Positions 868-56,396 of a DNA stretch of 64,000 nt are shown here, piece after piece. The DNA lies in NCBI RefSeq assembly GCF_028368995.1, contig NZ_JAQNDL010000001.1:1376001-1440000 (forward strand), in the 5' to 3' direction. Positions within the stretch are counted from its first letter, which is position 1, and the number at the start of each line of letters is the position of its first letter. A model generated the notes under the pieces. The model was not told the origin of the DNA. It was given only the letters and a program-made list of their open reading frames with translations, and did no database searches. Origin of the DNA: Nannocystis bainbridge. Its GTDB lineage: Bacteria; Myxococcota_A; Polyangia; Nannocystales; Nannocystaceae. The translations under genes were made by a program, and so were the position numbers.

Positions 868-932
868 GCGGATGGCGGCGCGGACATGCTCCCGGGAGCA
901 TGTCCGATCGCACATGCTCCTTCGGACACACC
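868..932. repeat. 14-bp-phased palindromic array (TGTCC-N4-GGACA family)
   Basis: Cores at 871 (GATG), 885, 899, 913 (CATG) and 927 (CACA), all 14 bp apart, directly after the helicase stop. Confidence 0.85.
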
Positions 933-1045
933 GAAGATTTGCCGCTCGCTGTGCGGCCGATCTGCCGTGGCGCTCGCCGCAATTATTGCCGGCGGACCGG
1001 GCAATCGTCGGTCACGACATTTCGGCCGGTCGGTCGCCGGGCACG

Positions 1046-1080
1046 AAAAAAGGCCGCCCCGGACGGGAGCGGCCTTTTTG
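1046..1080. terminator. Bidirectional intrinsic terminator
   Basis: AAAAAAGGCCGC-CCCGGACGGGA-GCGGCCTTTTT hairpin with A and T tails, between the convergent helicase and histone genes. Confidence 0.85.
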
Positions 1081-1113
1081 TTCGCTGCGTGCGACCCTCG
1101 CGGGTCGGACGGC

Positions 1114-1311
1114 CTACAGGTCGTAGGGGCGAACGGTGCTGCGGTTGTTGCTCTTGCAGCGCTCGATCGCGGCGCCGAGGAGCTCGTGGACCTTGTCGGA
1201 CACGGCCTGGATCAGCTCACCATCGCTGCGGAGACCCGCGTCGCGGATGACGTCCTTGACCTTGCTGCCGACGACGAGGATTTCCTTGGGTGCCTTGTTC
1301 TTGGTTGCCAT
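1114..1311 (-). CDS. Bacterial histone-fold protein (Bd0055-like), 65 aa
   Basis: MATKNKAPKEILVVGSKVKDVIRDAGLRSDGELIQAVSDKVHELLGAAIERCKSNNRSTVRPYDL. Has the LVVxSKVK start and the histone L2/alpha3 RxTV-x3-D motif. ATG at 1311; own terminator. Confidence 0.88.
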   Translation of the reverse strand: MATKNKAPKEILVVGSKVKDVIRDAGLRSDGELIQAVSDKVHELLGAAIERCKSNNRSTVRPYDL

Positions 1312-1774
1312 TGTTGGGTTCTTTCGCTCGTACGTCCGTGGGGACGAGAATGTGGAGGAGGTCGCGGTAGATCGGAGAAGCCCGACCTCGTTGCTCGGCA
1401 AGGACCATAATCCGGAACATCTGCTCTGCAAAGGCAAATTTGCAGCGTAGGAGCCAACTTTTTTCGGGGAGGGCCAGCGGGGAGGGGGTAGCGGCCCGTG
1501 TACCTTAGGTCTGACGGACTAGTCGGGCCCGCCGATCGCACCGACGCTGCCGCGGATGCGACCCCGCTAAAGCGGCGATATTCCATGAATCTGGCCTCTA
1601 AGCGCCGCCGCGGCCGCCGAATTGCTCGACGTCGGCGCGGCGCATGTCGATGCTGCGAGCAGAGTCCGATCTCCCTGAAGCCCGCGTCACAACCTGCGAG
1701 GTGCAGAAGATCGCATCTGCCCGCAGCGGTGACGATCGCCGGCCGGGTCACTCGCAGCTGCGTCGCTCCTTCCT

Positions 1775-2323
1775 TTAAGAGGAAGCAGCGAGGTCCTCGC
1801 AGGCGAGCGACCATGCGGACAGCAGCGCGGCTGCACGGGGGCCAGTGGCCGCGGCGAACAGAGATCTGCGGTCCGCCGACGGACGCGAAAGCGTGATCGC
1901 CAGGTGGTCCGCGGGCGGCGAACGCCACCGAGATCCCCACTCGACGATCATCGCCGTCCCGCGCTCGAGGCTCGGCTGTTCGGCCGCTTCGCCGAGCGCA
2001 CCGGACTCGAGCAGCAGCTCCTCGAGGTCGAGGGAATCGAACCCTGCGCCGCCGCCGAGGCCCTCGTCGTCGTCGCCGCCGAGGCGGAACAGATCGACGT
2101 GGACGAGGCTGGGGCCGCGGCCGTGGTGGACCATGCACAGGGTGAAGGTCGGGCTCTGGACCCGACCGGGATGAGACACGCCGAGCCCGACGGCGATCGC
2201 ACGGGTGAGCGTCGTCTTGCCTGCGCCCATGGGGCCGTGGAGCAGCACCACGTCGCCCGCTCGCAGACTCGCACCGAGCGCGCGCCCGCGCAGCGCCATC
2301 GCCTCCTGGTCGAGGTCGGTCAT
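1775..2323 (-). CDS. tsaE: tRNA threonylcarbamoyladenosine biosynthesis ATPase TsaE
   Basis: GDVVLLHGPMGAGKTT, VQSPTFTL, HVDLFRL and IVEWG motifs. Start could be GTG at 2383. Confidence 0.93.
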   Translation of the reverse strand: MTDLDQEAMALRGRALGASLRAGDVVLLHGPMGAGKTTLTRAIAVGLGVSHPGRVQSPTFTLCMVHHGRGPSLVHVDLFRLGGDDDEGLGGGAGFDSLDLEELLLESGALGEAAEQPSLERGTAMIVEWGSRWRSPPADHLAITLSRPSADRRSLFAAATGPRAAALLSAWSLACEDLAASS

Positions 2324-2459
2324 TTCCCGCGATCGTGGGGCGCCTTCGGCGTCCGCGCCCGTATTCGTCGGCCCTGCGCTCACGCCGCGAGTGTACACGC
2401 CGCGCGTCGCCCGGGCGGCCTTGTGCGCCGCGAAACTCCGGTGGTACAGGGCTGGTCCG

Positions 2460-4592
2460 ATGCTCGCAGTGGGCTCTCGTCTCCTCCGCCGCGCCGCCGC
2501 GTGCGCCCTCGTCGGCGCCGTCGCGTGCGAGCCGGGGCCGCCGCCGGAGCGGCGGGTGGCCGAGCCCGTCGACCCCTTGCGACCGCTCGACGTCCGCGGC
2601 CCCATCCCCGCCGGCATCAAGCTCGCCGACTACGTCCTCGACGCCAGCCTCGACGCCGAGAAACACACCGTCACCGGCACCGCGCGGATCACCTGGCGCA
2701 ACAGCACCCGCGCCCCCGTCGACGCGCTGGTGCTCCACCTCTATATGAACGGCTTCCGCGCCGAGGACACCGCGTGGATGGCCGAGGCCCGCGGCTCGCA
2801 CCGCGGCGCGCGGCAGGACAAGGGCGAGGGCAAGTGGGGCTACATCGACGTCCGCGCCGCTCGCCTGCTCGCGCAGGGACCGAGCGCCGACTTCAAGGCG
2901 CCCGAGCAGCGCGACGCTGCCGCCACCCCACTCACCCTCGTCGAGGGCGCCGACCCCAGCCTCGGCTCGCTCGCCTTGCCGCGCCCGGTCGGCCCTGACG
3001 AGACCATCACCGTCGAGCTCGACTTCTTCACCCAGCTGCCGCGGGTGTTCGCGCGCACCGGCTACGACGGCGAGTTCCACATGGTCGGCCAGTGGTACCC
3101 CAAGCTGGCGGTGCGCCACGAGGGCGGCTGGCAGGCCCACGTCTTCACGCTTCACAGCGAGTTCTACGCCGACTTCGGCGACTACGACGTCCACCTGGAT
3201 GTCCCCGAGGACATGGTCGTCGGGGCATCCGGCGTGCTGGTCGAGGAGCGGCCGCCGGAGGGCGGGCGCAAGCGGCTGCGGTACCGCGCCGACACCGTGC
3301 ACGACTTCGCCTGGGCCGCCTCGCCCGACTTCCTCGAGTACGGTGATACCTGGCGCGACGTCAGGATCCGCCAGCTCGTCCCGCGCGCGCTCGCGGGCGA
3401 CGTGCAGCGCCACCTCGACGCCCAGGTCGCCGCGCTCGAGAGCATGGACGCTCGCTTCGGGCCCTACCCGTGGTCGACGATCACCATCGTCCACCCGCCG
3501 GAGTCCGCCGGCGGCGCCCAGGGCATGGAGTACCCGACCTTCTTCACCACCTCCGACATCCTGCGCGTGCCGCTGCCGCTGCGCCTGCTCGGCATCCACG
3601 AGCTGCTCACCGGCGAGTTCACCACCATCCACGAGTTCGGCCACCAGTATTTCCAGGGCCTGCTCGCCTCCGACGAGGCGACCCAGCCGTGGCTCGACGA
3701 GGGCATCAACTCGTTCTCCAACACCCTCGCGCTCGACGACTGGCTCGGCGACGACGCCACCATCGCCCGCATCGGCAACCAGCGCGTGTCGACCATCGAC
3801 ATGATCCGCGTCGCCCTGCAGACCGCCGCCGAGCTCGACCCCGTCGACCGCCGCGCCGAGGACTACCGCGACTTCACCGGCACCTTCGGCGGCACCGTCT
3901 ACCGCAAGACCGCCGCCGTGTTCCACACCCTGCGCGCGCTGGTCGGCCCCGAGAAATTCGACCGCGCCTTCCGCATTTACTGCGACACCTGGCGCTTCCG
4001 TCACCCGACCGGCGCCGACCTGCGGGCCGCGCTCCTGCGTGAGATCGGCCCCAAGGTCAGGATCTCCGACACAGGTCCCGACGGCCAGCCGGTCGACCTC
4101 GACGTCGCCGACTACCTGGCCCAGGCGATCGAGACCACCGCCTCGGTCGATTTCGCCGTCACCCGGGTCGCCAACCGCCGGGCCGTCGGCGACGCCGGCT
4201 GGCGCCGCGGCCAGGACGGCGCGCTCGCGCTGATCGAGCCCGAGCCCGCGCCCGAGGGCGAGGAGCTGGGCGACGAGGCCAGCGAGGGCTTCGCGCTGAT
4301 CGTGCGCGAGGGCGAGTTCCGCGTCCCGGTCGAGATCGAGTTCGCGTTCAAGGGCGGCGCGCGCGAGCGGCTGTGGTGGGACGGCCAGGCCCGCTACCGC
4401 GTGTTCACCTTCCCCGGCAAGAAGCTCGCCGGCGTGGCGATCGACCCCGACGACAAGCTCCTGCTCGAGGGCGAGCGGCTCGACAACCGCGTGCGCGGCC
4501 CGGGCCAGCGCACCCCCGACGGCCTCAGCGATCCGGTCGCCCGCTTCCACGAGGCCATGGACCTCGCGGTGCTCGGAGGTCTCGGCCTGTGA
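2460..4592 (+). CDS. M1-family zinc aminopeptidase, probable lipoprotein
   Basis: GMEYP, HEFGHQYF and WLDEGIN motifs; lipobox-like AVAC after ATG 2460. Confidence 0.88.
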   Translation: MLAVGSRLLRRAAACALVGAVACEPGPPPERRVAEPVDPLRPLDVRGPIPAGIKLADYVLDASLDAEKHTVTGTARITWRNSTRAPVDALVLHLYMNGFRAEDTAWMAEARGSHRGARQDKGEGKWGYIDVRAARLLAQGPSADFKAPEQRDAAATPLTLVEGADPSLGSLALPRPVGPDETITVELDFFTQLPRVFARTGYDGEFHMVGQWYPKLAVRHEGGWQAHVFTLHSEFYADFGDYDVHLDVPEDMVVGASGVLVEERPPEGGRKRLRYRADTVHDFAWAASPDFLEYGDTWRDVRIRQLVPRALAGDVQRHLDAQVAALESMDARFGPYPWSTITIVHPPESAGGAQGMEYPTFFTTSDILRVPLPLRLLGIHELLTGEFTTIHEFGHQYFQGLLASDEATQPWLDEGINSFSNTLALDDWLGDDATIARIGNQRVSTIDMIRVALQTAAELDPVDRRAEDYRDFTGTFGGTVYRKTAAVFHTLRALVGPEKFDRAFRIYCDTWRFRHPTGADLRAALLREIGPKVRISDTGPDGQPVDLDVADYLAQAIETTASVDFAVTRVANRRAVGDAGWRRGQDGALALIEPEPAPEGEELGDEASEGFALIVREGEFRVPVEIEFAFKGGARERLWWDGQARYRVFTFPGKKLAGVAIDPDDKLLLEGERLDNRVRGPGQRTPDGLSDPVARFHEAMDLAVLGGLGL

Positions 4593-5390: not shown

Positions 5391-5492
5391 CCTGTCCCCC
5401 GGTACACATTTTTAAACATGTCCCAAGGGACATGTCTCGAGGGACGCATCTATAAAAAATGTCCCGAGGGACATGTCTCGCAGGACATCCTT
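5391..5492. repeat. 14-bp-phased palindromic array
   Basis: Cores at 5417, 5431, 5445, 5458, 5472 and 5486 (one 13-bp step), e.g. TGTCCCAAGGGACA and TGTCCCGAGGGACA. Confidence 0.85.
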
Positions 5493-5595: not shown

Positions 5596-7392
5596 ATGTC
5601 CATGCGCAGGATCTCCTGGTTGTTCGCCCTGGTCGCCTGCGGTCCTGCGGCCCAAGCTCCGGCCGGCCCTGCGCCGGCTCCGGAGGCGAACGTCGCCGTC
5701 GTCCCCGAAACGCCCGCCGCAGCGGGCAGCGTCACCGGCCGCCTCCGGGCCCACGACGGCAGCCCGCTGCGCGCCGGCGAGTTCGCGCTGATCCGCAACG
5801 GCTTCATGAAGCCGGCCGCGCGCGGCCCTCTGGGCGAGGACGGCAGCTTCCGCGTCGAGATCGAGCCCGGCATGTACATCCTCGCCGTCTCTGCCGTCGA
5901 CCACGCCCAGCTCGTGCAGGCGCTGCAGGTCACCGGCCCCGTCGAGGTCACGGGCAACCTCGGCACCTACGCGCGGCCCGAGCCTGGTGCGTCGCTGCAG
6001 GTCCACTTGCAGTGGCAGGACGCCGCCGGCGCGCAGCTGGGCGCCGAATCACGGACCGCGCCGCGCGGCCCTGCCGGCGCCTATCGCCTCGACCTCTCGG
6101 GCCGCCCGCCCCGCGCCGCCAGGCTGCGCTACCAGCTCGACAGCGGGACCGGCCGCACCTACAACGGCCCGCTCGCCGACCGCCACGAGAGCGACGGCGG
6201 CGGCGATTTTTGGTCGGTCGTCGACCTCGTCGGCCAGAGCGCGCTCGAGCTCGACCTCGCCAGGCTGCCGCCCGCGGACCGGCCCGCGCAGCTCGAGTGG
6301 CGCGGCGAGCCGTCCGGCATGCGCGCCCTCCGGCTCTTCCGCGACGCCTGGCAGCCCCGCGTCTCCGCGCTGCAGCAGAGCATGACGCACCAGGACGGCA
6401 AGCTGCTCGTCCCGGACGCGACCTGGCGGGCGACCATGGCCGCGCTCGCCGCCGAGGCGCTCGCCGAGGCCGACGCCGCCGCCGACGACGACACCCGCCT
6501 GCTGCTCCGCCTCGCCCACCTCGATCTGTTCACCGGCCACGACGACCACGCCGACGCCCGCGCCCGCGCCGACTGGCTGCTCGCGCGCGTCGATCCGCTC
6601 GACCGACGGCTCAGCGCGTTCTGGAACCTGACCAACCTCCTGTCCCGCGTCCTCGACACCGCCGACGAGACCTTCGCCGCGCGCGCCGAGGCGTGGCTGG
6701 CCCGCGCCGCCGCCCAGGAGGACGCCGGGACCGCCCTCGACGCCCTCTCGCTGCTCCTCTACCGCGCCCGCGACCGCGGCCTCGACGACCGCGTCGCCGA
6801 GCTGTACGCCAGCGCCCGCGAGCCGCGGTTCGAGGGCACCTTCACCGCCAAGTACCTCGCCGAGCAGTTCGACCCCGACCGCGCCCTGCAGCGCGGCAAG
6901 CCGCTGCCCGAGTTTCGCTTCCCCGCCCTCGACGTCGGCGCCCCCGCGGTGTCCCAGGCCGACCGTCGCGGCAAGCTCTACTTCATCGAGTTCTGGGCCA
7001 CCTGGTGCGGCCCCTGCGTCGCCGACATGCCCGACATCCACGCCGCCTACGCGGCGATCAACGGCGCCGCGCCCGGCCCCGGCCCCGACGGCCTGCACAA
7101 GCTCGGCGCCGTCGCCCAGCCGCGGATCGAGTTCGTGTTCGTCTCCTTCGACCAGGGCCCCGGCGTCGTCCAGGACTTCCGCGCCCAGCACTGGTCGATG
7201 CCGTGGACGCACGCGTTCGTCGGCCTCGCCGGCGAGCGCGAGGTCATGGCTCGCTTCGGCTTCTCCGGCGTGCCCACCGGCGTCCTCGTCGACGAGGAGG
7301 GCAAGATCCTCGAGCTCGGCGCCGACCTCCGCGGCGAGAGGCTGCGGCCCACGCTCGAGCGCGCGCTGGCCCGCGCCCCCCGCCCGATCTGA
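5596..7392 (+). CDS. Lipoprotein with C-terminal TlpA-like thioredoxin domain
   Basis: Lipobox LVAC; FWATWCGPC; GVPT cis-Pro motif. Confidence 0.85.
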   Translation: MSMRRISWLFALVACGPAAQAPAGPAPAPEANVAVVPETPAAAGSVTGRLRAHDGSPLRAGEFALIRNGFMKPAARGPLGEDGSFRVEIEPGMYILAVSAVDHAQLVQALQVTGPVEVTGNLGTYARPEPGASLQVHLQWQDAAGAQLGAESRTAPRGPAGAYRLDLSGRPPRAARLRYQLDSGTGRTYNGPLADRHESDGGGDFWSVVDLVGQSALELDLARLPPADRPAQLEWRGEPSGMRALRLFRDAWQPRVSALQQSMTHQDGKLLVPDATWRATMAALAAEALAEADAAADDDTRLLLRLAHLDLFTGHDDHADARARADWLLARVDPLDRRLSAFWNLTNLLSRVLDTADETFAARAEAWLARAAAQEDAGTALDALSLLLYRARDRGLDDRVAELYASAREPRFEGTFTAKYLAEQFDPDRALQRGKPLPEFRFPALDVGAPAVSQADRRGKLYFIEFWATWCGPCVADMPDIHAAYAAINGAAPGPGPDGLHKLGAVAQPRIEFVFVSFDQGPGVVQDFRAQHWSMPWTHAFVGLAGEREVMARFGFSGVPTGVLVDEEGKILELGADLRGERLRPTLERALARAPRPI

Positions 7393-7397
7393 CCGCG

Positions 7398-7462
7398 ATA
7401 ACATGCCCCGTAAGACATGTCCTTCAGGACATTCTCAAAAGGACATGTCTTTAAAGTCATCC
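7398..7462. repeat. 14-bp-phased palindromic array
   Basis: Cores at 7402, 7416, 7430, 7444 and 7458, starting about 10 bp after the stop at 7392. Confidence 0.88.
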
Positions 7463-8340: not shown

Positions 8341-9476
8341 GCGACGGCTCGCTGCTCACCGCCCTGCTCGCCCAGCCTCACGGCCTCGTCGTGCTCCACC
8401 TCGTCGACGGCGAGATCGTCGCCGCCAGCCCCGCCGTGCGCGCGCTGCTCGGCCCGTGCGCGTGCGGCGGCGCCCGCATGGAGGCGCTCGTCGCCACGGC
8501 CTCGGCGCCCAAGCTCGCCGCCGCGCTGGCCGCCGCCACCGCTGCCGTGTTCGAGCTGCAGGTGGTGTGCGACGCCGGCGACGCGCGGCCGCTGCGGTTC
8601 CTGGTCGTGCCGCTGCAGCCGCGCGAGCACCTCCTCGTCGCCGCCCCGCTCGACCCGCGGTACGGCGTCGACCTCGAGCGGCGGCTGCTCGCCAGCCACG
8701 GCGAGCTGGCCAACCTCACCCGCGACCTCAGCCGCCGCGCCGTCGAGATCGAGGCCGCGCGGGCCGGGCTCGAGGCGCTGGGCGCGTTGCGCGACGACTT
8801 CATGGCCGCGATGGCCCACGACCTGCGCGCCCCGCTGACGACGATCGGCCTGCAGGCCGAGATGCTGACGCGCGGCGCCGATCGTCCGTCGGCGGCCGAG
8901 GTCGCCCGGCGCGGCGGACTCATCGCCCGCAACGTCGCGCGCATGGACGCCCTGATGACCCGGGTCCTGGAGGCCGCGCGGCTGGGCGGCGGCGTCGTCG
9001 CGCTCGAGCGGCGCCGCGTCTCGCTGGTCGACCTCGCCCACGACGCCATGGAGGCCGTCCAGGGCGCCGCCGAGCGGGCCCGCCTCACCCTCGAGCTGCG
9101 CTGCCGCGCCGCCGACCCGTGGCTCGTCGTCGACGGCGTGCGGGTCGGCCAGGTCCTCGGCAACGTGCTCGAGAACTCGGTGCGCCACGCCCCGCCCGCC
9201 AGCACCATCATCGTGGCGATCACCGAAGAGCCCGCGCGCCTGCGCTGCACCGTGTGCGACCAGGGCCCCGGCGTCCCGCCCGGCCTGCGCGACCAGATCT
9301 TCGAGCGCTTCGGCCGCGGCGAGCACGCCGGCATGGCCGGCCTCGGGCTCTACATCGCCCGCAAGATCGCCCGGCTCCACGGCGGCGACCTGTGGGTCGA
9401 GGACGTCACGCCCGTCGGCGCCGCCTTCGTGCTCGAGCTGCCGCGCGCCCCTTCGGACATGCCCTCGGGGACATAA
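8337..9476 (+). CDS. Sensor histidine kinase (HisKA + HATPase)
   Basis: AHDLRAPL H-box, QVLGNVLENS N-box, DQGPG, GLGL. ATGA overlap with upstream gene. Confidence 0.92.
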   Translation: MSDGSLLTALLAQPHGLVVLHLVDGEIVAASPAVRALLGPCACGGARMEALVATASAPKLAAALAAATAAVFELQVVCDAGDARPLRFLVVPLQPREHLLVAAPLDPRYGVDLERRLLASHGELANLTRDLSRRAVEIEAARAGLEALGALRDDFMAAMAHDLRAPLTTIGLQAEMLTRGADRPSAAEVARRGGLIARNVARMDALMTRVLEAARLGGGVVALERRRVSLVDLAHDAMEAVQGAAERARLTLELRCRAADPWLVVDGVRVGQVLGNVLENSVRHAPPASTIIVAITEEPARLRCTVCDQGPGVPPGLRDQIFERFGRGEHAGMAGLGLYIARKIARLHGGDLWVEDVTPVGAAFVLELPRAPSDMPSGT

Positions 9477-9520
9477 ACCATGGGACATGCCCGATCGGGC
9501 ATGCCCTATGAGTCATATCC
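9454..9520. repeat. 14-bp-phased palindromic array overlapping the kinase C-terminus
   Basis: Cores at 9458, 9472, 9486, 9500 and 9514, between convergent genes. Confidence 0.85.
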
Positions 9521-9528
9521 CCGGACCG

Positions 9529-12500
9529 CTACGCCTCCTCGTCGCCCGCGTACGGCTGCGGCGCCAGGCCCAGGTCGGCCAGCACCGCGTACGCGGCCGG
9601 GATCACGATCAGCACCAGCACCGTCGACGCCGCCAGGCCGAACACGATCGACGCCGCCACCGGGATCAGCGACTGCGCGTGGCGGCTGGTCTCGAACATG
9701 ATCGGGAACAGCCCGGCGATCGTCGTCGCCGAGGTCAGCAGCACCGCGCGGAAGCGGTCGCGGCTGGCCTGCCCGGCCGCGGAGGTCGGCGAGTCGCCGC
9801 GGACCCGGGCCATGTTGATGAACTCCATCAGCAGGATCGAGTCGTTGACCACCACCCCGCAGATGGCGATGAGGCCGAAGATGCTCTGCGACGACAGCGG
9901 CATGCCCATCAGCAGGTGGCCCCAGATCACCCCGACGAACGCGAACGGGATCGCCAGCATGACGATGAGCGGCGCCACGAAGCTGCGGAACTGCAGGCTC
10001 AGCAGGGCGAACACCGCGAACAGCCCGATCATCATCCGCGTCAGCATCGAGCTCAGCGCCTCCGCCGACTGCTTGGCCGCCCCTCCGGCGGCCAGTCGGA
10101 CCTCCGGGAACTCGCGCTCGATCTCCGGCGCCGCCTCGGCCATGAAGCGGCTCATCAGCTCCGACGCGTTGGCCTCCTCCGCCGACACCCCGCCCGTCAC
10201 CGTCACGGTGCGCACGCTGTCGCGGCGGTTCAGGCGGGCGAAGCTGCTCGACAGCTCGATCGTCGCCAGCGACCCGAGCGGCATGTTGATCCCCGGCGCC
10301 ACCGTGATCGGCATCAGCTCGAGGTCGGCCATCGTGTCGCGGCCGCGCTGCTCGAGCTCGACGTACAGCTCGTAGTCCTCGCCGTGGGTGTGGAACGTCT
10401 GCACCGACACGCCCGTCAGCGCCGAGCGGACCTGCTGCGCCACCGCGCTGCCGGTCAGCCCGTGCGAGCCTGCCCCCGGGCGCAGGCGCACGCGCACCTG
10501 CTCGCTGCCCGGATCGAGGTTGTCGCCGACGTCGAACACCCCCGGGTTCTGCATGAACCACGCCTGGATCCGCTGCGACACCTCCTTCGCGCGCTCGAGG
10601 TCCTCGCTCTGGATCTCGACCTCGATCGCGTTGCCGGCCGGGCCGCCCCTGGTGCCCTCGGCGAACTTCGTCACCGCCGCGCTCGGCAGCGGCCCCGTCG
10701 CCTCGCGCCACGCCCGCGAGAACTTCTCGAGCGTGGTCGAGCGCTTCTCGATCCCGAGCAGGTCGACCGACACCGTCGCCAGGTGCGGCCCTGACTCGTC
10801 GGTCACGTCGGCGTTGTAGTTGAAGCGGGCCGACACGTTGCGGACCAGCGGCTGCTGCTCCGGCTGCTCCGGCGTCAGCGTGTCGTTCACCCGCCAGGCC
10901 GCGGCCACCACCCGATCGACCTCCTGCTGCGTGCGCTCCAGCGGCGCCCCTGGCGGCAGCGCCAGCCGGAATTCGGCCACGTCGCCCTCGGCCGCCGGGA
11001 ACGCCACGTAGCGCAGGCGCCCGCTCGACAGCATCCCGATCGAGCCGATCAGCAGCGCCACCATCAGCCCGAGCGTCGCCCAGCGGTGGCGCACCGCGAA
11101 ATCGACCGCCCCGCCGAGCCGGCGCTCGCGGAAGCGGGCGAACCCCGCGTCGAACCACACCCGCGCCTTGCTCTTCTGGTTGGGGTCGACGTCGCGGAAC
11201 GTGTGCGCCAGGTGGTTCGGCAGGATCAGGAACGCCTCGACCAGGCTGACCGCCAGCACCGCCACCAGCACGATCGGGATCACCTGCAGCACCCGGCCGA
11301 TCCGGCCCTCGATGCCCATCAGCGGCAGGAACACCGCCACCGTCGTCAGGAACGACGAGACGATCCCCGACGCGACCTCCTTGACCGAGTCGACCGCCGC
11401 GCGCATCGCCGACTCCCCGCGCTCGCGGTGGGCCGCGAAGTTCTCGGCCAGCACGATCGCGTCGTCCATCACCAGGCCGAGCGCGACCAGCATCCCCATC
11501 ATCGTCATCATGTTGATGGTCTGACCGAGCTGGCCGAGCACCCACAGCGACCCGAGCACCGACACCGGCAGGCCGACCGCGACCCAGAACGCCAGGCGCA
11601 CGTGGAAGAACAGCCACAGCGTCCCGAACACCAGCAGCAGCCCCTGCCACGCGTTCGTGAACAGCAGCCCGATCTGGTCCGACACCGCCGACGCCACGTT
11701 CTGCGTCAGCGTCAGCGTCACCCCGGTCGGCTTGCGCAGCTCCTGCTCGGCGATGAACCCCTCGATCGAGCCGAGCACGTCGAGGCTGTCCTGCCACGCC
11801 GTCTTCGTGACCCCGAGCGTGCACGCGCGCTCGCCGTTGAACTGCGTCTGCTCCTCCTCGATCGCGAACGTGTCTTCGATCCTCGCCACGTCCGCCAGCC
11901 GGATCTCCGCCCCCCCGGCCGCGCCCTTGACCACCAGCTCGGCGAGCGCCGACACCTCCGTGCGCTTGTCCGAGTAGCGGACCAGGATGTCGCCGCCGGC
12001 GCGCTCGATCGTCCCGATCGGGCTGTCCACGCTCTGGGCCTGGACCGCCGCCGCCACGTCCGCGACCGACAGCCCGTGGCGGGCCAGCGCCGACTGCTTG
12101 AGCTGGATCAGGATCTGGTGGGTCGAGAACCCCGCGATCGAGACCTGCGCCACGTGCTCGTCGCGCAGCAGCTCGCGCCGCAATTGCTCGCAGTAGAGCT
12201 TCAGGTCCTGGGCCGACATCGGCCCCGTGACCGCGATCGAGGCCACCGGCGCGCGGCGGGTCGCCGCCGCCACGATCGGCGGGTCGAGGTCCGGCGGCAG
12301 GTCGCGCAGCCCGTCGACCGCCGACTTGACGTCGGCCAGCACGTCGGCGAGCGGCACCTTGTCCTCGACGTCGATCGTGATCGACGCCGAGCCCTCGCGG
12401 GCCTGCGACGTCATCACCGCCACCCCGTCGAGCCCCGCGATCGCCTCCTCGATGCTCTGGACCAGCGTCTCGTCGACGATCTCCGCGTCGGCCCCGGGAT

Positions 12501-41239: not shown

Positions 41240-41246
41240 GGCTCCA

Positions 41247-43179: not shown

Positions 43180-43352
43180 CTTGCCCCTTCCGCCATGTCT
43201 TCAAGGACATGCTCCCATCACCATGACCTATCCGACATGCTCTGAAAGACATGCTCGAACGAACAGGCACGGACAACCGCGTCCAGCCGGTGCGCGCCCC
43301 TGAAAGCTGTCCCCGAAGACATGCCCACGAGGACATGTCGTTTCGCGCCTGC
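43180..43352. repeat. Longest 14-bp-phased array (13 positions in register)
   Basis: Cores at 43180, 43194, 43208, 43222, 43236, 43250, 43264, then two decayed positions (43278, 43292), then 43306, 43320, 43334 and 43348. Confidence 0.92.
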
Positions 43353-43371: not shown

Positions 43372-45222
<1,851 letters not shown>

Positions 45223-45386: not shown

Positions 45387-45513
45387 ACCTGTCTCTCCGG
45401 ACATCTAATCCACGCCTCCACTCGACGACCTCGTCACACAACCTGTCCCTTCGGCCATCTCATTCTCCCACCTCGGCATCACCGCCGATACATACCTGTC
45501 CCTTCGGACATCT
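45387..45513. repeat. Three regularly interspaced 20-bp direct repeats built on the 14-bp palindrome
   Basis: ACCTGTCTCTCCGGACATCT (45387), ACCTGTCCCTTCGGCCATCT (45441) and ACCTGTCCCTTCGGACATCT (45494); 34 and 33 bp between them. Confidence 0.8.
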
Positions 45514-45594
45514 TCACCCCGTGGCCGCCTTCGCGCCTCGCATCTTTGTTCGCCCTCTGGAACACCGACCCCGAGCTCGCGCGTAGCACCCGGC

Positions 45595-46573: not shown

Positions 46574-46622
46574 CCTGCCCCCTCGGACATGCCTGTAAAG
46601 GCATGTCCTTTGGCGCATGTCC
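46574..46622. repeat. 14-bp-phased palindromic array
   Basis: Cores at 46574, 46588, 46602 and 46616, right after the stop. Confidence 0.85.
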
Positions 46623-46765
46623 GCACAGTGTCTCCCTTCACGACCGAGTTTGACACGCCGGTCCGGCGCATCTGACGATGAAGCTTCGCTCATGCGCGTC
46701 GGACGTCGGCGAAGTCACGCCCGGGCCCACGTCGGCGGCGAGGCTGCTATCCTCCGCGCGTCCGC

Positions 46766-47497
46766 TTGCACGACCGCATCCACATCTTCGGCGTGTTCCA
46801 GATCCCCTGGCTCAAGGGGGCCCGGCCCGTGCGCGTGTACGTACCGCCGGACACCGGCCGGCCGCCGCCGGTGCTCTTCATGTTCGACGGCCAGAACATC
46901 TTCGACGACGAGACCTCGCACAGCGGCGGCTGGTACCTGCACCACGCCGCGCGCGACCTGTGCGCTCGCGGCGGGACGGCGCCGCTGATCGTCGGCATCG
47001 ACCACGGCGGGATCTACCGCATGCGCGAGCTCTCACCGTTCCGCATGCGCCAGCGCGGCCAGGCGCCGCACCTGGTGCGCTGGATGATCGACGAGCTGCA
47101 GCCGCAAATCCGCAGCAGCTTCCACGTGCGCCACGACCTCGCCGGCACGGCCGTGGGCGGCTCGTCGCTCGGCGGCCTGGCGGCCCTCTACGCCCACTGG
47201 CACCGCCCCGATGTGTTCGGCGCGGCGCTGTGCATGTCGCCCTCGCTGTGGGTCGCGCGCGAGAAGATGCTGAAGTTCGTGGCCGACCGCCCGCGCCCGC
47301 TCACGTCGCGCCTCTACCTCGACGCCGGCGGCAACGAGCCGCGCGTGCGCCCTGCGACCGAGCGCATGGTCAAGCACCTGCGCGCCCGCGGCTACGGCCC
47401 CGAGGCGATGCGCTGGGTGTTCGACCCCGGCGCCGTGCATCACGAGAGCGCCTGGCGCCGCCGCGCCCCCGCGGCCCTCGAGTTCCTGTTCGGTTGA
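46766..47497 (+). CDS. Putative esterase (alpha/beta hydrolase)
   Basis: VLFMFDGQNIF, GGSSLGG and HHESAW motifs; start codon uncertain. Confidence 0.88.
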   Translation: MHDRIHIFGVFQIPWLKGARPVRVYVPPDTGRPPPVLFMFDGQNIFDDETSHSGGWYLHHAARDLCARGGTAPLIVGIDHGGIYRMRELSPFRMRQRGQAPHLVRWMIDELQPQIRSSFHVRHDLAGTAVGGSSLGGLAALYAHWHRPDVFGAALCMSPSLWVAREKMLKFVADRPRPLTSRLYLDAGGNEPRVRPATERMVKHLRARGYGPEAMRWVFDPGAVHHESAWRRRAPAALEFLFG

Positions 47498-47558
47498 GCA
47501 TGTCCGATCGGACATGCTCAATCGGACATGCTCAATCGGACATGCTCGATCGCCCAGC
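47485..47558. repeat. 14-bp-phased array containing near-exact tandem copies
   Basis: ATCGGACATGCTCA twice plus ATCGGACATGCTCG at 47507-47548; cores from 47485 to 47555 in register. Confidence 0.92.
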
Positions 47559-48422: not shown

Positions 48423-48524
48423 CATGAGTCACCGACGCGCGCGAAAATCACATGGCGCGAAGGGCAGGTCCCTTCGGACCTGTCCCGCGCGCCATGTCTT
48501 ATCGAACCTGCCCTGACGGCCAGC
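48423..48524. repeat. 14-bp-phased palindromic array
   Basis: Cores at 48423, 48451, 48465, 48479, 48493, 48507 and 48521. Confidence 0.82.
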
Positions 48525-54087: not shown

Positions 54088-54148
54088 CGTGTCCTCGAGG
54101 ACATGCTCATTCGAACATGCTCCAAAGAACATGGCGATTCGGGCATTT
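54088..54148. repeat. 14-bp-phased palindromic array
   Basis: Cores at 54088, 54102, 54116, 54130 and 54144, right after the stop. Confidence 0.88.
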
Positions 54149-54432: not shown

Positions 54433-54506
54433 GCGGGCGTCGTCTAACAGGCCAGGATCCGGGGTCCTCACCCCCGAGACGCAGGGTTCGAGTCCCTCCG
54501 CCCGCG
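54433..54506 (+). tRNA. tRNA-Glu(CTC), atypical or possibly pseudo
   Basis: Acceptor GCGGGCG/CGCCCGC, anticodon arm CGGGG-TCCTCAC-CCCCG, T-loop TTCGAGT. C at position 33 and a C-C mismatch in the T stem; no CCA. Confidence 0.7.
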
Positions 54507-54513
54507 CATCAGC

Positions 54514-54587
54514 GCTCTGTTCGGCCAGCGGTTCAGGCCACCTCGCTTTCACCGAGGTTCGCAGGGGTTCGAATCCCCTACAGAGCA
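54514..54587 (+). tRNA. tRNA-Glu(TTC)
   Basis: GCTCTGT/ACAGAGC, CCTCG-CTTTCAC-CGAGG, AGGGG-TTCGAAT-CCCCT; no CCA. Confidence 0.9.
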
Positions 54588-54603
54588 AATGTCGCGTCCT
54601 CCC

Positions 54604-54675
54604 GGGTCGGTAGCTCAGCGGGAGAGCGATGGATTGTTAATCCATCGGTCGTGGGTTCGATCCCCACCCGGCCCT
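54604..54675 (+). tRNA. tRNA with GTT (Asn) anticodon and atypical acceptor
   Basis: GGGTCGG/CCGGCCC, GCTC/GAGC D stem, ATGGA-TTGTTAA-TCCAT, GTGGG-TTCGATC-CCCAC; G1-C72 and U73. Confidence 0.88.
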
Positions 54676-54677
54676 CT

Positions 54678-54713
54678 ATTCGCGGCCCCGCGAATCGCAT
54701 GCTCATGCGATTC
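54678..54713. terminator. Overlapping hairpins between tRNA cluster and convergent cls
   Basis: ATTCGCGG-CC-CCGCGAAT and GAATCGCATG-CT-CATGCGATTC inverted repeats; no clear U-tract. Confidence 0.45.
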
Positions 54714-54747
54714 TCGGGTCGCACCATTCGCCGCGCCGCGTCAGCCG

Positions 54748-56013
54748 CTAAAGCTGCGACTTGATCGGCCGGACCAGCTTCTCGGCCAGCTTCTCGCGCA
54801 GCGGGCGCGCGAGCCACGTGGCGAGCGTGCACGCGCGGGCGCGCTGGAGGTCGGCCTCGAACTGGGCCGTCATGCGGGCGGCGAAGCCGGCGTCGTAGAC
54901 GTTGAGGCTGGCCTCGTCGTTGAGGCGGAACGAGCGGATGTCGAAGTTGGTCGAGCCGACCGAGACCATCTCGCCGTCGACGATCAGCAGCTTGGTGTGC
55001 AGCATCGTCGGCGCGTACTCGTGGATCTCCACGCCCGCCTCCAGCAGCGGACCCCAGCCGGCCTTCGAGGCCAGGCGCACCGCCTCCGAGTCGGTGTGCA
55101 CGCCGGGCAGCAAGATCCGCACGCGCACGCCGCGGCGACGGGCCGCCAGCAGCTCTTGATCGATGAGCGCGTCGGGCACGAAGTACGAGGCGGCGAGGTC
55201 GATGCTGCGCGCGGCGGCGGCGATCGCCATCAGGTACATCAGGTGCATGCTCTCGCTGCCGCCGGCCGGCGAGCTGATGAACAGGTGCGCGGCCATGCTG
55301 CCGGCTCGGGTCGGCGCCGGGAAGTACGGCTCGCCGTTCAGCACCTCGCCGGTGGTCTTGATCCAATTGTCGTTGAAGGCCGCCTGGATCTGCGACACCA
55401 CCGGGCCCTCGACGCGGAAATGCATGTCGCGCCAGTGCTCGGGGTCCTGCGCGTGGCCGGTCCACAGGTCGGCGATGCCGACCCCGCCGGTGAAGCCGAT
55501 CTGGCCGTCGACGACCAGCAGCTTGCGGTGGGTGCGGTTGTTGAGCCGGCTCAGGTTGTACCAGCGGAGCGGCCGATAGCGCTCGACGCGGACGCCCGCG
55601 CGGCGCATCTCGTCGAGCAGCGCGTCGTCCATCTTGAGGACGCCGGCCCAGTCGAGGATCACGCACACCTTGACCCCGGCGCGGGCGCGCTCGCTGAGGG
55701 CCTCGCTGAACTCGCGGCCGATGGCGCCCGACCAGTAGATGTAGGTCTCGAACTCGATCGTGCTGCGGGCGCCGCGGATCGCCGCGAGCATCGCCGGGAA
55801 GATTTCGTCGCCGTTCTGCAGGTCGACGACGCTGTTGCCCTCGACGATCGACGGCCCCAGCAGGACGCCCATCTCGCGCCGGAACTGCGGGTCGCACACG
55901 TCGTGGTGGTGGTGCACCCGCCGCGCCAGCTTCTTCTCCGGCGTGGCGAAATTCGCCGCCAGCACCGTCACCAACACCACGAGCGCCGCGGTCGCCACGA
56001 TCGTCTCGATCAT
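54748..56013 (-). CDS. cls: Cardiolipin synthase (phospholipase D family)
   Basis: Two HKD motifs (THRKLLVVD, LHTKLLIVD) and GSTNFDIRSFRLNDE. Confidence 0.92.
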   Translation of the reverse strand: MIETIVATAALVVLVTVLAANFATPEKKLARRVHHHHDVCDPQFRREMGVLLGPSIVEGNSVVDLQNGDEIFPAMLAAIRGARSTIEFETYIYWSGAIGREFSEALSERARAGVKVCVILDWAGVLKMDDALLDEMRRAGVRVERYRPLRWYNLSRLNNRTHRKLLVVDGQIGFTGGVGIADLWTGHAQDPEHWRDMHFRVEGPVVSQIQAAFNDNWIKTTGEVLNGEPYFPAPTRAGSMAAHLFISSPAGGSESMHLMYLMAIAAAARSIDLAASYFVPDALIDQELLAARRRGVRVRILLPGVHTDSEAVRLASKAGWGPLLEAGVEIHEYAPTMLHTKLLIVDGEMVSVGSTNFDIRSFRLNDEASLNVYDAGFAARMTAQFEADLQRARACTLATWLARPLREKLAEKLVRPIKSQL

Positions 56014-56304
56014 GCGCGCAGGCTCCGGAGGTCGAACATCACGGGGATCTCTCGAGAATGGGGCACGCCGGCGGGGACGGAGCTTCGCACCTCTGGTCGC
56101 GCGGCGAGCGAGCGGCGCGGCCAGGGATGCATGACGAAGCGCACGCCACCCGCGGCATTCGCCGCGCCGGCGTGCCGGTCACCGCTTCGCCGCCGCGGCA
56201 AACCGCGGCCCGGACACATCAGCCACGTCCGCGGACGTTCGTCGGCGTCACCGCGCCGTCGCCGTCACCGGGCGCGGGACGATCGCCGCGCCGCTGCTCC
56301 GCGG

Positions 56305-56396
56305 CCCGCATGTCCCGAAGCGCATGTCTCGAAGCACATGCTCTCCAGGACATGTCGGTGAATCTATGTCCCCGAGGACATGTCCCCATGCTCCTG
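56305..56396. repeat. 14-bp-phased array overlapping the SDR C-terminus
   Basis: Cores at 56309, 56323, 56337, 56351, 56365, 56379 and 56393. Confidence 0.9.

Follow-up and report, generated by a model that had tools for sequence, protein, structure and literature searches.

A palindromic 14-base unit in phased tandem arrays behind and within genes of Nannocystis

The genome of Nannocystis, a soil myxobacterium, holds one palindromic word in thousands of copies, both behind genes and within working genes, a scale far above that of the earlier observation in one window (the 64,000-nucleotide stretch of DNA analysed here). The unit has the consensus (A/C)TGYCC-N4-GGRCA(T/G), and its anatomy, phasing, distribution, pattern of conservation, presence in genes and lack of known mobilisers are established. 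The best explanation, which we hold tentatively and would not call probable, is a sequence-specific palindromic word that is read by a putative Nannocystis protein, forms hairpins at gene ends and grows by slippage. Reading by a protein, the role of that protein and the growth mechanism are proposed in the following form. The reader would recognise the word on DNA or on single strands, and selection or transmission bias would maintain it across the entire genome. The word would accumulate where tolerated, mainly right behind stops and less in coding sequence, and at gene ends it would double as the hairpin that ordinarily sits there. Replication slippage would gain or lose whole units, leaving strictly phased arrays, and frame-preserving multiples of units would give in-frame inserts in genes.

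Anatomy and phasing of the unit

The original prediction named 16 array loci, and all 16 are phased units, those at 868, 5391, 7398, 56305, 39321, 48423 and 43180 by direct reading and the remaining ones by a 10-mer scan with at most 2 mismatches. Single units, also predicted, exist (15907-15920, 44526-44539, 62689-62702 and 63295-63308 are examples). The array of 13 units claimed for the window was not found there, the largest having ~6-7. A chain caller reports 24 arrays in the window; the features are as follows (window positions; strand where one is assigned).

871-930: array of 3 cores, lying in the convergent gap that follows the stop at 861 (direct reading, scan and chain caller)
3200-3213: single unit in an M1 peptidase gene, on the conserved peptide LDVPEDMVVGA (10-mer scan)
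5391-5489: array of two chains with an A/T-rich interruption, following the stop at 5362
7388-7461: array of 4 cores, beginning at the stop codon of gene 5620-7392
9444-9531: array of 4 cores (span 5 units), filling the convergent gap 9476-9529
14324-14397: array of 4 cores, adjoining the stop of gene 14407-15123 (-)
15907-15920: single unit, 8 bases past the stop of a CBS-domain gene (sequence print)
19772-19845: array of 4 cores, filling a 57-base convergent gap
20827-20900: degenerate array within gene 19827-21692 (-), spanning 4 units with 2 scored cores
23080-23153: array with five core positions, after a UDP-glucose dehydrogenase gene
27511-27677: a pair of arrays, of 2 and of 3 cores, past the stop at 27498
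30219-30292, + strand: in-frame array of 4 cores, at about residues 243-265 of the Lhr helicase
31362-31407, + strand: array of 2 cores in the Lhr gene, conserved in genomes G005 and G007
33881-33968: array of 5 cores in a convergent gap, right behind the stop of Lhr at 33877
35240-35285: array of 2 cores in a divergent gap (chain caller)
39325-39384: array of 3 cores bordering a low-GC stretch
43180-43351: two arrays (~6 units; 2 cores) between two kinase genes
44526-44539: single unit with C...G extension, inside kinase gene 43372-45222 (-)
45481-45526: array of 2 cores in a divergent gap
46574-46633: array of 3 cores, beginning 2 bases past the stop at 46572
47485-47558: array of 4 cores in a convergent gap
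48451-48524: array of 4 cores with CAGG/CCTG junctions, the whole being a long palindrome
54088-54147: array of 3 cores, beginning 2 bases past the stop at 54086
56309-56396: array of ~6 units, overlapping the 3' end of gene 56364-57149 (-)
62689-62702: single unit with CC...GG extension, inside gene 61229-62857 (-)
63295-63308: single unit inside gene 62981-64540 (-) (10-mer scan)

Phasing is evident from the spacing of CATG. Among the 253 sites in the window, 38 pairs are 14 bases apart, 25 pairs 28 and 16 pairs 42, and none 13 or 15; when the window was simulated 200 times with a first-order Markov model, lag-14 pairs averaged 0.645 and never exceeded 4. The same autocorrelation over the genome gives 3,736 pairs at lag 14, whereas lags 13 and 15 have 72 and 262. 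A position-weight-matrix scan traced the arrays beyond the window, to ~2,400 with ~7,200 cores in the 11-Mb genome, the longest spanning 19 units; core-to-core spacing was 14 in 4,263 instances, 13 in 33 and 15 in 37. Spacing is kept and letters are not, as predicted. The most frequent 10-mer between CATGs has 14 copies among 3,736 units, adjacent units share 4.69 identities of 10 versus 4.58 for random pairs, and a mere 10 of 1,797 neighbouring-unit pairs are common to different arrays. Every array is unique in sequence.

The GGRCATGYCC junction is self-complementary, so that the hairpin arms are also direct repeats 14 bases apart, which makes slippage possible. Neighbours identical at 9 or more of 10 positions make up 3.0% of adjacent pairs versus 0.6% of random pairs, near-identical runs are also seen, and recent expansions are thus visible. 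In the array at 47485-47558, three near-identical units (96% matches by TRF) mark a recent 14-base expansion. An element that adds TG...CA-bounded units processively, the second of three readings offered originally, is therefore unneeded: ordinary slippage at such a junction could suffice, recent expansions are visible, and the genome has no multi-copy IS.

The unit is highly specific in sequence. Exact units number 2,828 with N4, as against 93 with N3, 54 with N5, 28 with N6 and 13-63 with scrambled arms; N4 is thus 30-100 times commoner than the other spacers. In ~96-97% of the 2,828, the letter at -1 is A or C and that at +14 is T or G, against a genomic G content of ~36%. Of 1,445 cores that lie between two strong cores and were not themselves ascertained on, 1,131 have an intact CATG, each of the four letters being present in 92-94%. 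Array boundaries fall at complete TG...CA units, and the usual context of single units is CC...GG rather than CATG. Protein binding, the first of the original readings, gains from the intact CATG, from the A or C at -1 (97%), from the preference for N4 and from the conservation of coding units described below, but no reader protein, not even a candidate, was found. Moreover, the 14-base phase can be explained without cooperative binding.

The prominence of CATG, the best-kept part of the unit, also raises the idea that this junction, or C-A/C-T-G more generally, is the target of a putative orphan amino-methyltransferase, arrays being methylation-dependent marks or sinks. The sole accepted second letter besides A is C, which, by our inference, matters as another base with an exocyclic amino group, and the palindromic hexamers ACATGT and GCATGC are depleted compared with ACATGC and GCATGT (odds ratios 0.3-0.54). 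However, single units are mostly of the CC...GG and not the CATG kind, and we consider this idea highly improbable. The anti-correlation of the letters beside CATG lies outside the predictions of the read-word model.

Placement behind genes and within them

By our own crude gene caller, on which all gene-gap and coding figures rest, arrays are held by 669 of 1,447 convergent gaps (46%), 691 of 4,349 tandem gaps and 140 of 1,460 divergent gaps, and 811 of 2,404 distances from an array to a gene 3' end are 0-20 bases. The predicted enrichment near stop codons, often between convergent genes, is therefore real. With the array masked, at most 16 bases remain in a quarter of the 630 array-bearing convergent gaps of 40-400 bases. 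Array density is ninefold higher in convergent than in divergent gaps; because of this excess, the view that the word is read by a protein needs the added assumption that promoters are avoided.

Such placement favors a serious though unlikely alternative, a REP-like RNA element that forms hairpins at 3' ends only, serves as a partial terminator and exonuclease barrier in the way demonstrated for E. coli REPs, owes its sequence to a founder and is harmless in genes. The array is often the sole foldable element between convergent stops, and array RNAs have folding energies between -24 and -36 kcal/mol and z-scores between -3.2 and -7.1 (the single unit at 62689-62702 gives an 8-bp stem at -13.9 kcal/mol). 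Arm letters pair across N4 above expectation (odds ratios 1.4-2.1 in the larger skew stratum), with one case of compensatory change, CTC..GAG to CCC..GGG, between G005 and G007. At the place orthologous to the array at 23080-23153, the array-poor genome G009 has a plain hairpin with a 12-bp stem. There is also a precedent in E. coli REP325, which is described as a partly Rho-dependent terminator and mRNA stabiliser (bioRxiv 10.64898/2026.03.23.713779). However, a hairpin would take any complementary letters at -1, where G and T are almost absent, and the stems are sequence-specific, A/T-richer than the genome and linked arm to arm by no more than 0.02 bits of mutual information. Only 2.4% of arrays are trailed by a T-rich run, and in tandem gaps folding is equally good for the sense and the antisense strand (422 vs 416). 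The sense strand has an excess of G.U, but a strong replication skew, and possibly mutation linked to transcription, confounds it. Conservation of the units deep in genes comes at the cost of rare codons. The third original reading, a 3'-end RNA structure, thus agrees with the placement and with the G009 hairpin but fails as the whole story, there being no U-tract, no strand difference, and conservation of coding units.

Arrays do lie mostly at gene ends and in gaps, as claimed, but they are not purely intergenic: the one at 30219-30292 is inside the Lhr helicase gene. At least 64 arrays (with at least 3 exact CATG cores and at least 30 codons from gene ends) are in frame within genes; these, and conserved single units deep in coding sequence, are a new observation. 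Pfam domains are found in 14 of 20 sampled host genes, including those for Lhr, MutL, DNA polymerase III alpha (DnaE-type), an RlmL-type methyltransferase and a P-type ATPase, and units are present in two Lhr genes, MutL and a DnaE-type gene. The Lhr array, common to G005 and G007, occupies the variable loop that separates the DEAD domain from Helicase_C, and this loop exceeds its counterpart in most outgroup genera by 20-30 residues.

Exact units wholly in called coding sequence number 1,063, versus 64 with the control spacer N3 and 41 with N5, although called 5' ends run long and some of these units may be upstream DNA. The 629 single units deep in genes show a strong bias in codon phase (61/213/355), and A or T fills 28% of their third codon positions although the GC3 of the hosts is ~0.83-1.0; deep coding units use rare codons. 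In a small sample of 15 alignable comparisons between G005 and G007, coding units were kept in 14 and control 14-mers in 10, with mismatches at 1 of 150 arm letters and 10 of 60 N4 letters; these units were ascertained on one genome, which can lower the apparent change at scored positions up to ~twofold. The unit in the M1 peptidase gene shows no indel against 11 homologues, and its peptide is conserved family-wide. Units on conserved peptides may be kept owing to the protein.

The in-frame arrays in real genes, most of the sampled hosts having Pfam domains, and the long Lhr loop speak for the relic of an extinct mobile element (MITE or RPE type), spread by an ancestral transposase into gene gaps and, in frame, into genes, whose copies now only drift and slip. 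The unit also has TG...CA ends, which are typical of DDE-transposon termini. Rickettsia palindromic elements (RPEs) provide a precedent, being frequent in-frame inserts in unrelated working genes that are translated as extra loops (PMC10969869). Nevertheless, we judge such a relic to be quite unlikely. By its length a single 14-base unit cannot enter in frame, and the gene unit tested sits on a conserved peptide without an indel; the inheritance of the arrays, considered next, also argues against it.

Inheritance of arrays and searches for mobilisers

Orthologous loci were aligned between G005 and G007 (19 arrays, a small sample of 51 units). CATG letters changed in 3%, the first C of YCC in the inner arm in 2%, outer arm letters in 12-24% and N4 letters in 25%, the apparent change at scored positions being lowered up to ~twofold since units were ascertained on one genome. 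The comparison rates are 8.4% at fourfold-degenerate sites and 7.8% in other non-coding DNA. N4 turnover is thus ~3 times that of other non-coding DNA, and a simple 'neutral spacer' is therefore no explanation. The arrays keep their place, and phase is retained in all 19 orthologous arrays without internal gaps. In five species the array at 23080-23153 has identical unit number and phase, and that at 19772-19845 has orthologous arrays of other sequence. Drift alone, as in a mobile relic, would not make CATG and arm letters slower than neutral sites. Also at odds with a relic, all arrays differ in sequence, and G005 and G007 show 1 clean presence/absence difference among ~58 arrays per genome.

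Searches for a mobiliser agree. A search for the Y1/RAYT transposase (PF01797) found none in this genome or in five other Nannocystis genomes, and the genome has no repeat of at least 400 bases with at least 4 copies except at contig ends. No CRISPR-like architecture was seen, an Rfam search matched three tRNAs and no other family, and no published description of the element was found in the literature searched, which upholds the original statements that it is neither a classical REP element nor CRISPR, that no RAYT accompanies it and that it is not recognised as a described element. A search for a small GIY-YIG gene gave none, the two PF01541 matches being in open frames of 523 and 1,264 residues. 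ComEC and DprA homologues are present, as they are in 10-11 of 14 control genomes.

Six large Nannocystis genomes have 1,550-2,090 copies of the single unit each, and five smaller ones have 114-959; the counts are 161 and 87 for two other genera and 0-8 for 28 other genomes. The unit is a mark of the genus Nannocystis, with low density in two sister genera. These counts bear on the possibility that a dimeric nucleoid or insulator protein polymerises along the arrays and that phase itself is selected. The spacing counts, the retention of phase in 19 of 19 arrays and the location of arrays where converging transcription meets would suit such a scaffold. However, single units are common, and the five smaller genomes have 0, 0, 1, 2 and 2 arrays of 3 cores, which argues that arrays are dispensable for the role of the unit. 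Slippage, together with selection that acts on every unit and at the CATG junction, would give equal phasing, and we regard a selected scaffold as very unlikely.

Comparison with known repeat systems

The unit resembles several genomic words and repeats in part. HIP1 of cyanobacteria, a solid palindrome of 8 bases, greatly exceeds expectation in coding and non-coding DNA and is kept across species, with no known mobiliser; it has no spacer and is not known to show tandem phasing or a 3'-end preference. The Nannocystis unit is likewise an over-abundant palindrome in both kinds of DNA without a known mobiliser, but it has the N4 spacer, the 14-base phasing and the preference for 3' ends.

The DUS of Neisseriaceae and USS of Pasteurellaceae, both DNA uptake enhancing sequences (DUES), are oriented, non-palindromic words of 9-12 bases that are not known to form phased tandem arrays, and for which a reader (pilin or uptake machinery) and uptake bias have been shown experimentally. 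Like them, the Nannocystis unit is a short word that recurs about once every 1.5-4 kb, characterises a genus and is rarer in close relatives; unlike them, it is a palindrome in phased arrays. About half of DUES are in terminators, mostly as inverted pairs, and those in genes show reading-frame bias and a leaning to genome maintenance (bioRxiv 10.1101/2025.10.24.684340; PMC2397512; PMC3630211). The gene-end arrays, the biased codon phases of the 629 in-gene singles and the Lhr, MutL and DnaE-type hosts are comparable features in Nannocystis.

NTS/dRS3, a palindromic repeat of 6-N8-6 type with hundreds of copies in Neisseria and others, is read by the single-strand nuclease Ssn, a GIY-YIG protein whose gene is flanked by the repeat (PMC11893778). 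A palindromic repeat with a dedicated reader is a model for finding a Nannocystis reader, although our search found no small GIY-YIG gene. NTS has oriented flanks and clusters near particular genes, whereas Nannocystis units are symmetric and evenly spread behind genes.

REP/BIME elements of Enterobacteria and Pseudomonas, which go with RAYT transposases, too are short imperfect palindromes, in hundreds to thousands, behind genes or between convergent genes and often clustered, and in E. coli they are described as terminators and stabilisers (bioRxiv 10.64898/2026.03.23.713779). They differ in that they alternate in orientation with linkers, whereas Nannocystis units abut with a fixed 14-base period, are fully symmetric without a GTAG-type head, occur and are conserved in coding sequence, and have no RAYT in 6 of 6 genomes searched. 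The in-frame arrays, at least 64 of them, recall RPEs. However, RPEs are ~100-150 bases long and form recognisable families with a conserved encoded peptide, whereas the Nannocystis inserts are stacked 14-base units with a free N4, most copies are intergenic, and single in-gene units arise without indels.

Phasing, extent and distribution of the arrays

The genome of Nannocystis bainbridge (11.05 Mb, 71.5% G+C, 5 contigs) carries a 14-base palindrome, (A/C)TGYCC-N4-GGRCA(T/G), whose units abut to form arrays with GGRCATGYCC cores at the junctions. Read directly, the window loci cited in the original prediction are runs of GGACATGTCC-like cores with four free letters between them. The window (C1:1376001-1440000) has 253 CATG sites, with 38 pairs at lag 14, 25 at lag 28, 16 at lag 42 and none at lags 13 and 15, while 200 first-order Markov simulations of the window give a lag-14 mean of 0.645 and a maximum of 4. 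The predicted lag-14 peak is equally clear in the whole genome, where CATG pairs at lag 14 number 3,736 and those at lags 13 and 15 number 72 and 262, respectively. A weight matrix made from the lag-14 units, circular for letters and not for spacing, puts successive cores 14 bases apart in 4,263 cases, against 33 cases of 13 bases and 37 of 15. Chaining the cores yields 2,435 arrays and 7,172 cores genome-wide, compared with 24 arrays in the window, so the family is not confined to the window. Array DNA amounts to 108 kb, of which 84 kb lies outside called genes (intergenic total, 1.69 Mb); one 14-base word makes up about 1% of the 11-Mb genome and about 5% of intergenic DNA. The prediction of up to 13 units per array in the window did not survive: the longest has about 6-7, and the longest in the genome spans 19 units.

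The outer limits of arrays fall on whole TG...CA units. Exact TGYCC-N4-GGRCA has 2,828 genome copies, against 93, 54 and 28 for controls with N3, N5 and N6 spacers and 13-63 for scrambled arms. The base preceding the unit is A or C, and that following it T or G, in about 96-97% of cases (flanking pairs A:T 1,112, C:G 539, C:T 473, A:G 399). The junction within arrays is CATG, which is intact in 1,131 of 1,445 unascertained cores (those flanked by two strong cores); array ends and single units usually have CC...GG. Information in the core declines from the centre outward to the N4 letters, which are A/T-rich and nearly free. The most frequent 10-mer between CATGs occurs only 14 times in 3,736 units, which, together with the 14-base steps, agrees with the prediction of fixed spacing and variable letters.

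The strict three-core pattern occurs 49 times in N. bainbridge, 9-30 times in five other large Nannocystis genomes, 0-2 times in five smaller ones, and not at all in 30 genomes outside the genus but within its family and class. Among the 80 matches listed in a search of one genome per species (185,579 species), at least 76 are Nannocystis (N. exedens, N. punicea, N. pusilla, N. radixulma, further strains and MAGs) and four are single strays. The unit itself is distributed more widely:

Copies of TGTCC-N4-GGACA per genome
Six large Nannocystis genomes: 1,550-2,090
Five smaller Nannocystis genomes: 114-959
Two other genera of the family: 161 and 87
28 further genomes: 0-8
Reversed control pattern: 0-10

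In G009, an array-poor Nannocystis, the units are mostly single and C...G-flanked; the word therefore predates the arrays, and it is the large-genome clade that characteristically stacks it.

Gene ends, hairpins and strand asymmetry

Placement was studied with our own codon-usage gene caller (8,130 genes, 84.7% coding), whose stops are exact and starts approximate. Arrays occur in 669 of 1,447 convergent gaps (46%), 691 of 4,349 tandem gaps (16%) and 140 of 1,460 divergent gaps (9.6%), or about 2.9, 0.9 and 0.3 per kilobase, respectively. The nearest 3' end is 0-20 bases away in 811 of 2,404 distances; an overlap with the stop, of at most 20 bases, is seen in 205 arrays. Arrays were thus rightly said to lie near stops, often between convergent genes.

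In convergent gaps of 40-400 bases, to which the hairpin survey was restricted, 61% of those lacking an array (n=373) have a 44-base hairpin of -22 kcal/mol or better, versus 28% of length-matched coding controls. When the array is masked in array-bearing gaps (n=630), a median of 54.5 bases is left, and in a quarter of them 16 or fewer. At a threshold of -18 kcal/mol, hairpins are present in 21% of the short remainders (20-60 bases) versus 62% of similar-sized array-less gaps; for longer remainders no such difference is seen. RNA folding of representative arrays gives -24 to -36 kcal/mol, with z-scores of -3.2 to -7.1. Both where the arrays lie and how they fold match transcript-ending hairpins; at one orthologous site a relative carries an ordinary hairpin. 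An intrinsic (Rho-independent) terminator is a G+C-rich hairpin followed by a U-tract. The arrays provide the hairpin, but a T-rich run within 20 bases downstream is found for only 2.4% of 846 tandem-gap arrays, and this identity was rejected.

These features bring the arrays close to REPs, which likewise are extragenic palindromes scattered over gene 3' ends and convergent gaps. REP325 is described as a partly Rho-dependent terminator and mRNA stabiliser (bioRxiv 10.64898/2026.03.23.713779). A purely REP-like role in RNA is a serious rival to any reading by protein, and by this analogy could explain the placement, but we hold it to be unlikely. Among tandem-gap arrays, 422 fold better on the sense strand and 416 on the antisense strand. 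With all units pooled, arm positions share no more than 0.02 bits of mutual information. Letters across N4 gave a weak sign of pairing only when unascertained cores were taken and split by the sign of local GC skew: pairing exceeds expectation in the larger stratum (n=1,049; odds ratios 1.4-2.1, p 0.0001-0.09), and the excess is that stratum's result, the smaller having n=396. The bases either side of CATG are anti-correlated in both strata (odds ratios 0.54 and 0.30, p < 1e-4), ACATGC and GCATGT being favoured over the palindromic ACATGT and GCATGC.

On the sense strand, T:G pairs number 665 versus 466 C:A. This excess was rejected as decisive proof of selection on RNA, since replication skew gives the same signal. 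In convergent gaps there is a difference between plus and minus strands (p = 3e-9), and the ratio of T:G to C:A tracks the sign of GC skew; the excess is largely due to replication skew. A smaller, transcription-linked part persists beyond skew, of which mutation bias could be the cause. The skew is unusually strong and uniform, about -0.05 to -0.1 across contigs C1, C2 and C5 and about +0.06 to +0.1 on C4 and the initial 1.5 Mb of C3, and it confounds strand-asymmetry tests in this genome. Its sign flips near C3:1.5 Mb, probably the origin or terminus, and gene strand bias is weak.

Other hairpins lie at the gene ends of the window and its orthologues. Ordinary terminators are found alongside arrays, as at about 1040-1080, where a G+C-rich hairpin is flanked by A and T runs. 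A second such terminator, a GGCCCCC...GGGGGCC hairpin in the convergent gap 17460-17563, is conserved in 5 of 5 compared species. The orthologues of the gap 19770-19827 in two sister species, the Nannocystis genomes G005 and G007, are expanded to 150-330 bases and contain perfect 28-base CATG-centred palindromes. With the A/T runs on their flanks, these palindromes have the look of tailed bidirectional terminators.

Units within genes and the history of the arrays

The original prediction placed most array starts close to stop codons. The arrays are not confined to gene gaps; they are in part coding. Of 129 coding-classed arrays spanning at least 4 units, 114 lie wholly within one open frame, which has a GC3 of about 0.83-1.0 to either side of the array. 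Arrays that span at least 3 units and keep a distance of 30 codons or more from either end of the called gene number 178, a few of which are true protein repeats; a conservative count (at least 3 exact CATG cores, same distance) gives 64. Among 20 further host genes sampled, 14 have Pfam domains.

Arrays and a unit within genes
30219-30292: array at about residues 243-265 of an Lhr helicase, in the DEAD-Helicase_C loop, common to G005 and G007
Second Lhr gene: array in the same loop as in the first
MutL gene: array in the linker
DNA polymerase III alpha-type (DnaE-type) gene: array in the PHP region
RlmL-type methyltransferase gene: array splits the domain match
Genes for a P-type ATPase, IucA/IucC, an enhancer-binding protein and kinases with WD40 repeats: further hosts
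3200-3213: single unit on the peptide LDVPEDMVVGA, conserved across 11 homologues up to Enhygromyxa, no indel

In the first Lhr, the cores are kept between N. bainbridge and G005, and the N4 letters and encoded residues differ. The loop is 20-30 residues shorter in three of six outgroup genera (G011, G013 and G047); of the rest, one has an intermediate loop and two have long loops of other sequence. The DnaE-type polymerase has about 44 more residues around the array than E. coli Pol III alpha, without exact boundaries, and a PDB search with its first 200 residues returned nothing. Housekeeping enzymes, including MutL, Lhr and the DnaE-type polymerase, are predicted to carry extra translated loops encoded by in-frame arrays.

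Single units, whose occurrence had also been noted, are numerous in coding DNA. There are 1,063 exact units fully within called coding DNA; the N3 control has 64 and the N5 control 41. Single coding units at least 50 codons from the called start number 629; their codon phases are distributed 61/213/355, and 28% of the third positions of the codons overlapped by single units are A or T. The unit at 3200-3213, without an indel on a conserved peptide, was written by codon choice and not by insertion. In a sample of 15 coding units (30 comparisons with G005 and G007, 15 alignable), the unit is retained in 14 of 15 and control 14-mers of the same alignments in 10 of 15; mismatches are 1/150 in the arms and 10/60 in N4, all small numbers. 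The word is sequence-specific beyond the needs of pairing and is retained within genes despite a rare-codon cost.

The arrays are not copies of one another. Among the 1,797 distinct pairs of adjacent units, 10 are found in another array as well, versus 0-3 in shuffles, and neighbours are identical at 4.69 of 10 letters versus 4.58 for random pairs. A small tail of recent duplicates exists, 3.0% of neighbours having at least 9/10 identity versus 0.6% of random pairs, and certain arrays are near-identical unit runs or 28- or 42-base super-units. Five other species have arrays at the matching place in orthologous gene gaps. In the gap after the UDP-glucose dehydrogenase gene, unit number and phase are equal in these five species and the letters different; at that spot G009 has a plain hairpin with a 12-bp stem, whose arms appear to resemble two cores with CCTG/CAGG junctions.

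G005 and G007 were compared over 416 kb (94.8% identical), with 58 arrays each, of which 29 are anchored on both sides and 19 are gap-free; the latter (51 units) were scored. Since arrays were ascertained in G005 alone, apparent change at the scored letters is lowered up to about twofold.

Change between G005 and G007
CATG letters: 3%
Outer arm letters: 12-24% (one inner arm letter, 2%)
N4 letters: 25%
Fourfold-degenerate sites: 8.4%
Other aligned non-coding DNA: 7.8%

The N4 letters change at about three times the rate of other non-coding DNA. A search aimed at insert boundaries found one clean presence/absence difference between the two genomes. Metagenome contigs from four runs come from relatives only, at about 90% identity, and carry no information on transcript ends or 14-base steps; their alignments end at arrays. 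Among RNA data, no pure-culture run was found to cover the window. Arrays break alignments between species, and masking or modelling them in annotation is advisable.

A dead mobile element like the Rickettsia palindromic elements (RPE) is a further serious rival. MITE- and RPE-type elements are recognized by mutually similar copies, terminal inverted repeats, target-site duplications and a parent IS. The Nannocystis arrays share with them an in-frame presence in protein-coding genes; the Rickettsia elements are described as in-frame gene inserts (PMC10969869). They differ in being mutually dissimilar and in showing one clean gain or loss. As for a parent IS, k-mer counting gave no repeat of at least 400 bases with at least 4 copies, contig ends excepted. 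By this analogy a dead element seems distinctly improbable. Every array has its own sequence, and the arrays are old and true to phase. Fresh duplications of 14 bases are occasional, and no mobiliser came to light.

Comparison with known systems and other features

REP elements mobilized as REPINs have a cognate Y1 (HUH) RAYT gene, usually REP-flanked. The window had been said to lack RAYT, and genome-wide searches agree: PF01797 has no match in six Nannocystis genomes (N. bainbridge and five others), while a control search matched 6 of 14 known genomes. The genomes are 80-91% complete, and a copy could have been missed. REPs are moreover asymmetric, with a GTAG-type 5' head and alternating orientation (BIME/REPIN doublets). 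The Nannocystis unit logo is symmetric and units abut head to tail at exactly 14 bases, as expected from the claim that they are not classical GTAG REPs. CRISPR arrays have 23-50-base repeats, unique spacers of similar length and cas genes; the 14-base period, the four free letters and the absence of cas among 43 window proteins scanned confirm that the arrays are not CRISPR. No published description of the arrays was found in the literature searched, supplements aside.

DNA uptake sequences (DUS/USS) are, by analogy, the closest parallel. The Nannocystis word is also over-represented at gene ends and in coding sequence, and shares their frame bias and genus-level distribution. About half of uptake sequences are described as lying in terminators, mostly as inverted pairs, and those in genes show a frame bias and lean to genome-maintenance genes (bioRxiv 10.1101/2025.10.24.684340). 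Uptake sequences are further marked by a receptor protein and by competent cells that preferentially take up word-bearing DNA. Homologues of ComEC and DprA are present, but also in 10-11 of 14 control genomes, and are uninformative. In the Ssn/NTS system the repeat is read by the GIY-YIG nuclease Ssn, whose gene it flanks (PMC11893778). A Pfam-level search for a small Ssn-type GIY-YIG gene returned only two PF01541 matches, in frames of 523 and 1,264 residues; arrays lie 0.5-4 kb from both, as for most genes. Genes flanked by arrays on both sides, sought as possible partners, number 90 of 8,130, not above chance. HIP1 is a further comparison case for the unit.

Taken together, the specificity of the word, its hairpin-like placement and the unique, phase-true arrays point to a putative genomic word read by protein, doubling as a gene-end hairpin and growing by slippage. 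We put this forward tentatively, as plausible though somewhat short of probable. A candidate reader protein, suggested by the conservation pattern, would recognise the word genome-wide, and at gene ends the word would double as a hairpin. Because the junction is self-complementary, the inverted arms are also direct repeats 14 bases apart, on which slippage may add units, as the geometry and the recent duplicates suggest. This would be a simple structural reason for the strict phasing, a hairpin with palindromic arms being a tandem repeat as well, and the reasoning may extend to other phased palindrome arrays of uncultured bacteria.

A narrower proposal, which we consider quite unlikely, takes DNA uptake or self-recognition signals as its nearest model: a palindromic 'self word' read genome-wide by a dedicated protein. 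Such a word would be written into genes through codon choice, double as a terminator hairpin at nearly half of convergent gene pairs, and multiply into phased arrays through its self-complementary junction. Winged-helix dimers of the PadR type bind ATGT-N8-ACAT boxes, which the Nannocystis unit presumably resembles, and in a variant of the proposal the reader would be of this type. If true, the 'self word' would be the first such signal in Myxococcota and the first as a spaced palindrome.

The arrays combine traits otherwise known separately. They are placed like REPs, occur genome-wide and inside genes like uptake sequences, and form in-frame inserts like Rickettsia palindromic elements, without any known enzyme of those systems. 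Since Nannocystis strains are cultured, any reader protein, methylation state and transcript ends are directly accessible.

Several other features of the window were observed:

27848-29371: collagen-like repeat gene (PF01391), with a 9-base tandem repeat at 28004-28081
34796-34941: 33-base tandem repeat at 34796-34935, 4.4 copies, 91% matches, in gene 34150-34995 (-)
35385-37851: MbnP-like gene (PF20243), then a di-haem cytochrome c peroxidase/MauG-like gene (PF03150)
39165-41240: region mostly left uncalled by the codon-usage caller, unlike its surroundings, with a 603-residue open frame
39400-39424: 8-base short repeat
54433-54675: three consecutive tRNA genes of 72-74 bases each (Rfam 39.7-69.2 bits)

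The two coding repeats are unrelated to the 14-base family. The pairing of MbnP with a MauG-like protein is typical of copper-related periplasmic systems. The region 39165-41240 looks atypical in composition; its open frame has an AIPR (abortive-infection) domain (PF10592, E = 3e-23), and the whole looks like a small acquired defence island adjoining an array. The tRNA genes, which begin about 290 bases past the array at 54088-54147, were all that an Rfam scan of the window returned at gathering score. Elsewhere in the genome, long multi-copy sequences are limited to repeats, each about 3.5 kb long, at two contig ends (C1:4515674-4536530 and C2:3026590-3033751), which probably explain the assembly breaks there.
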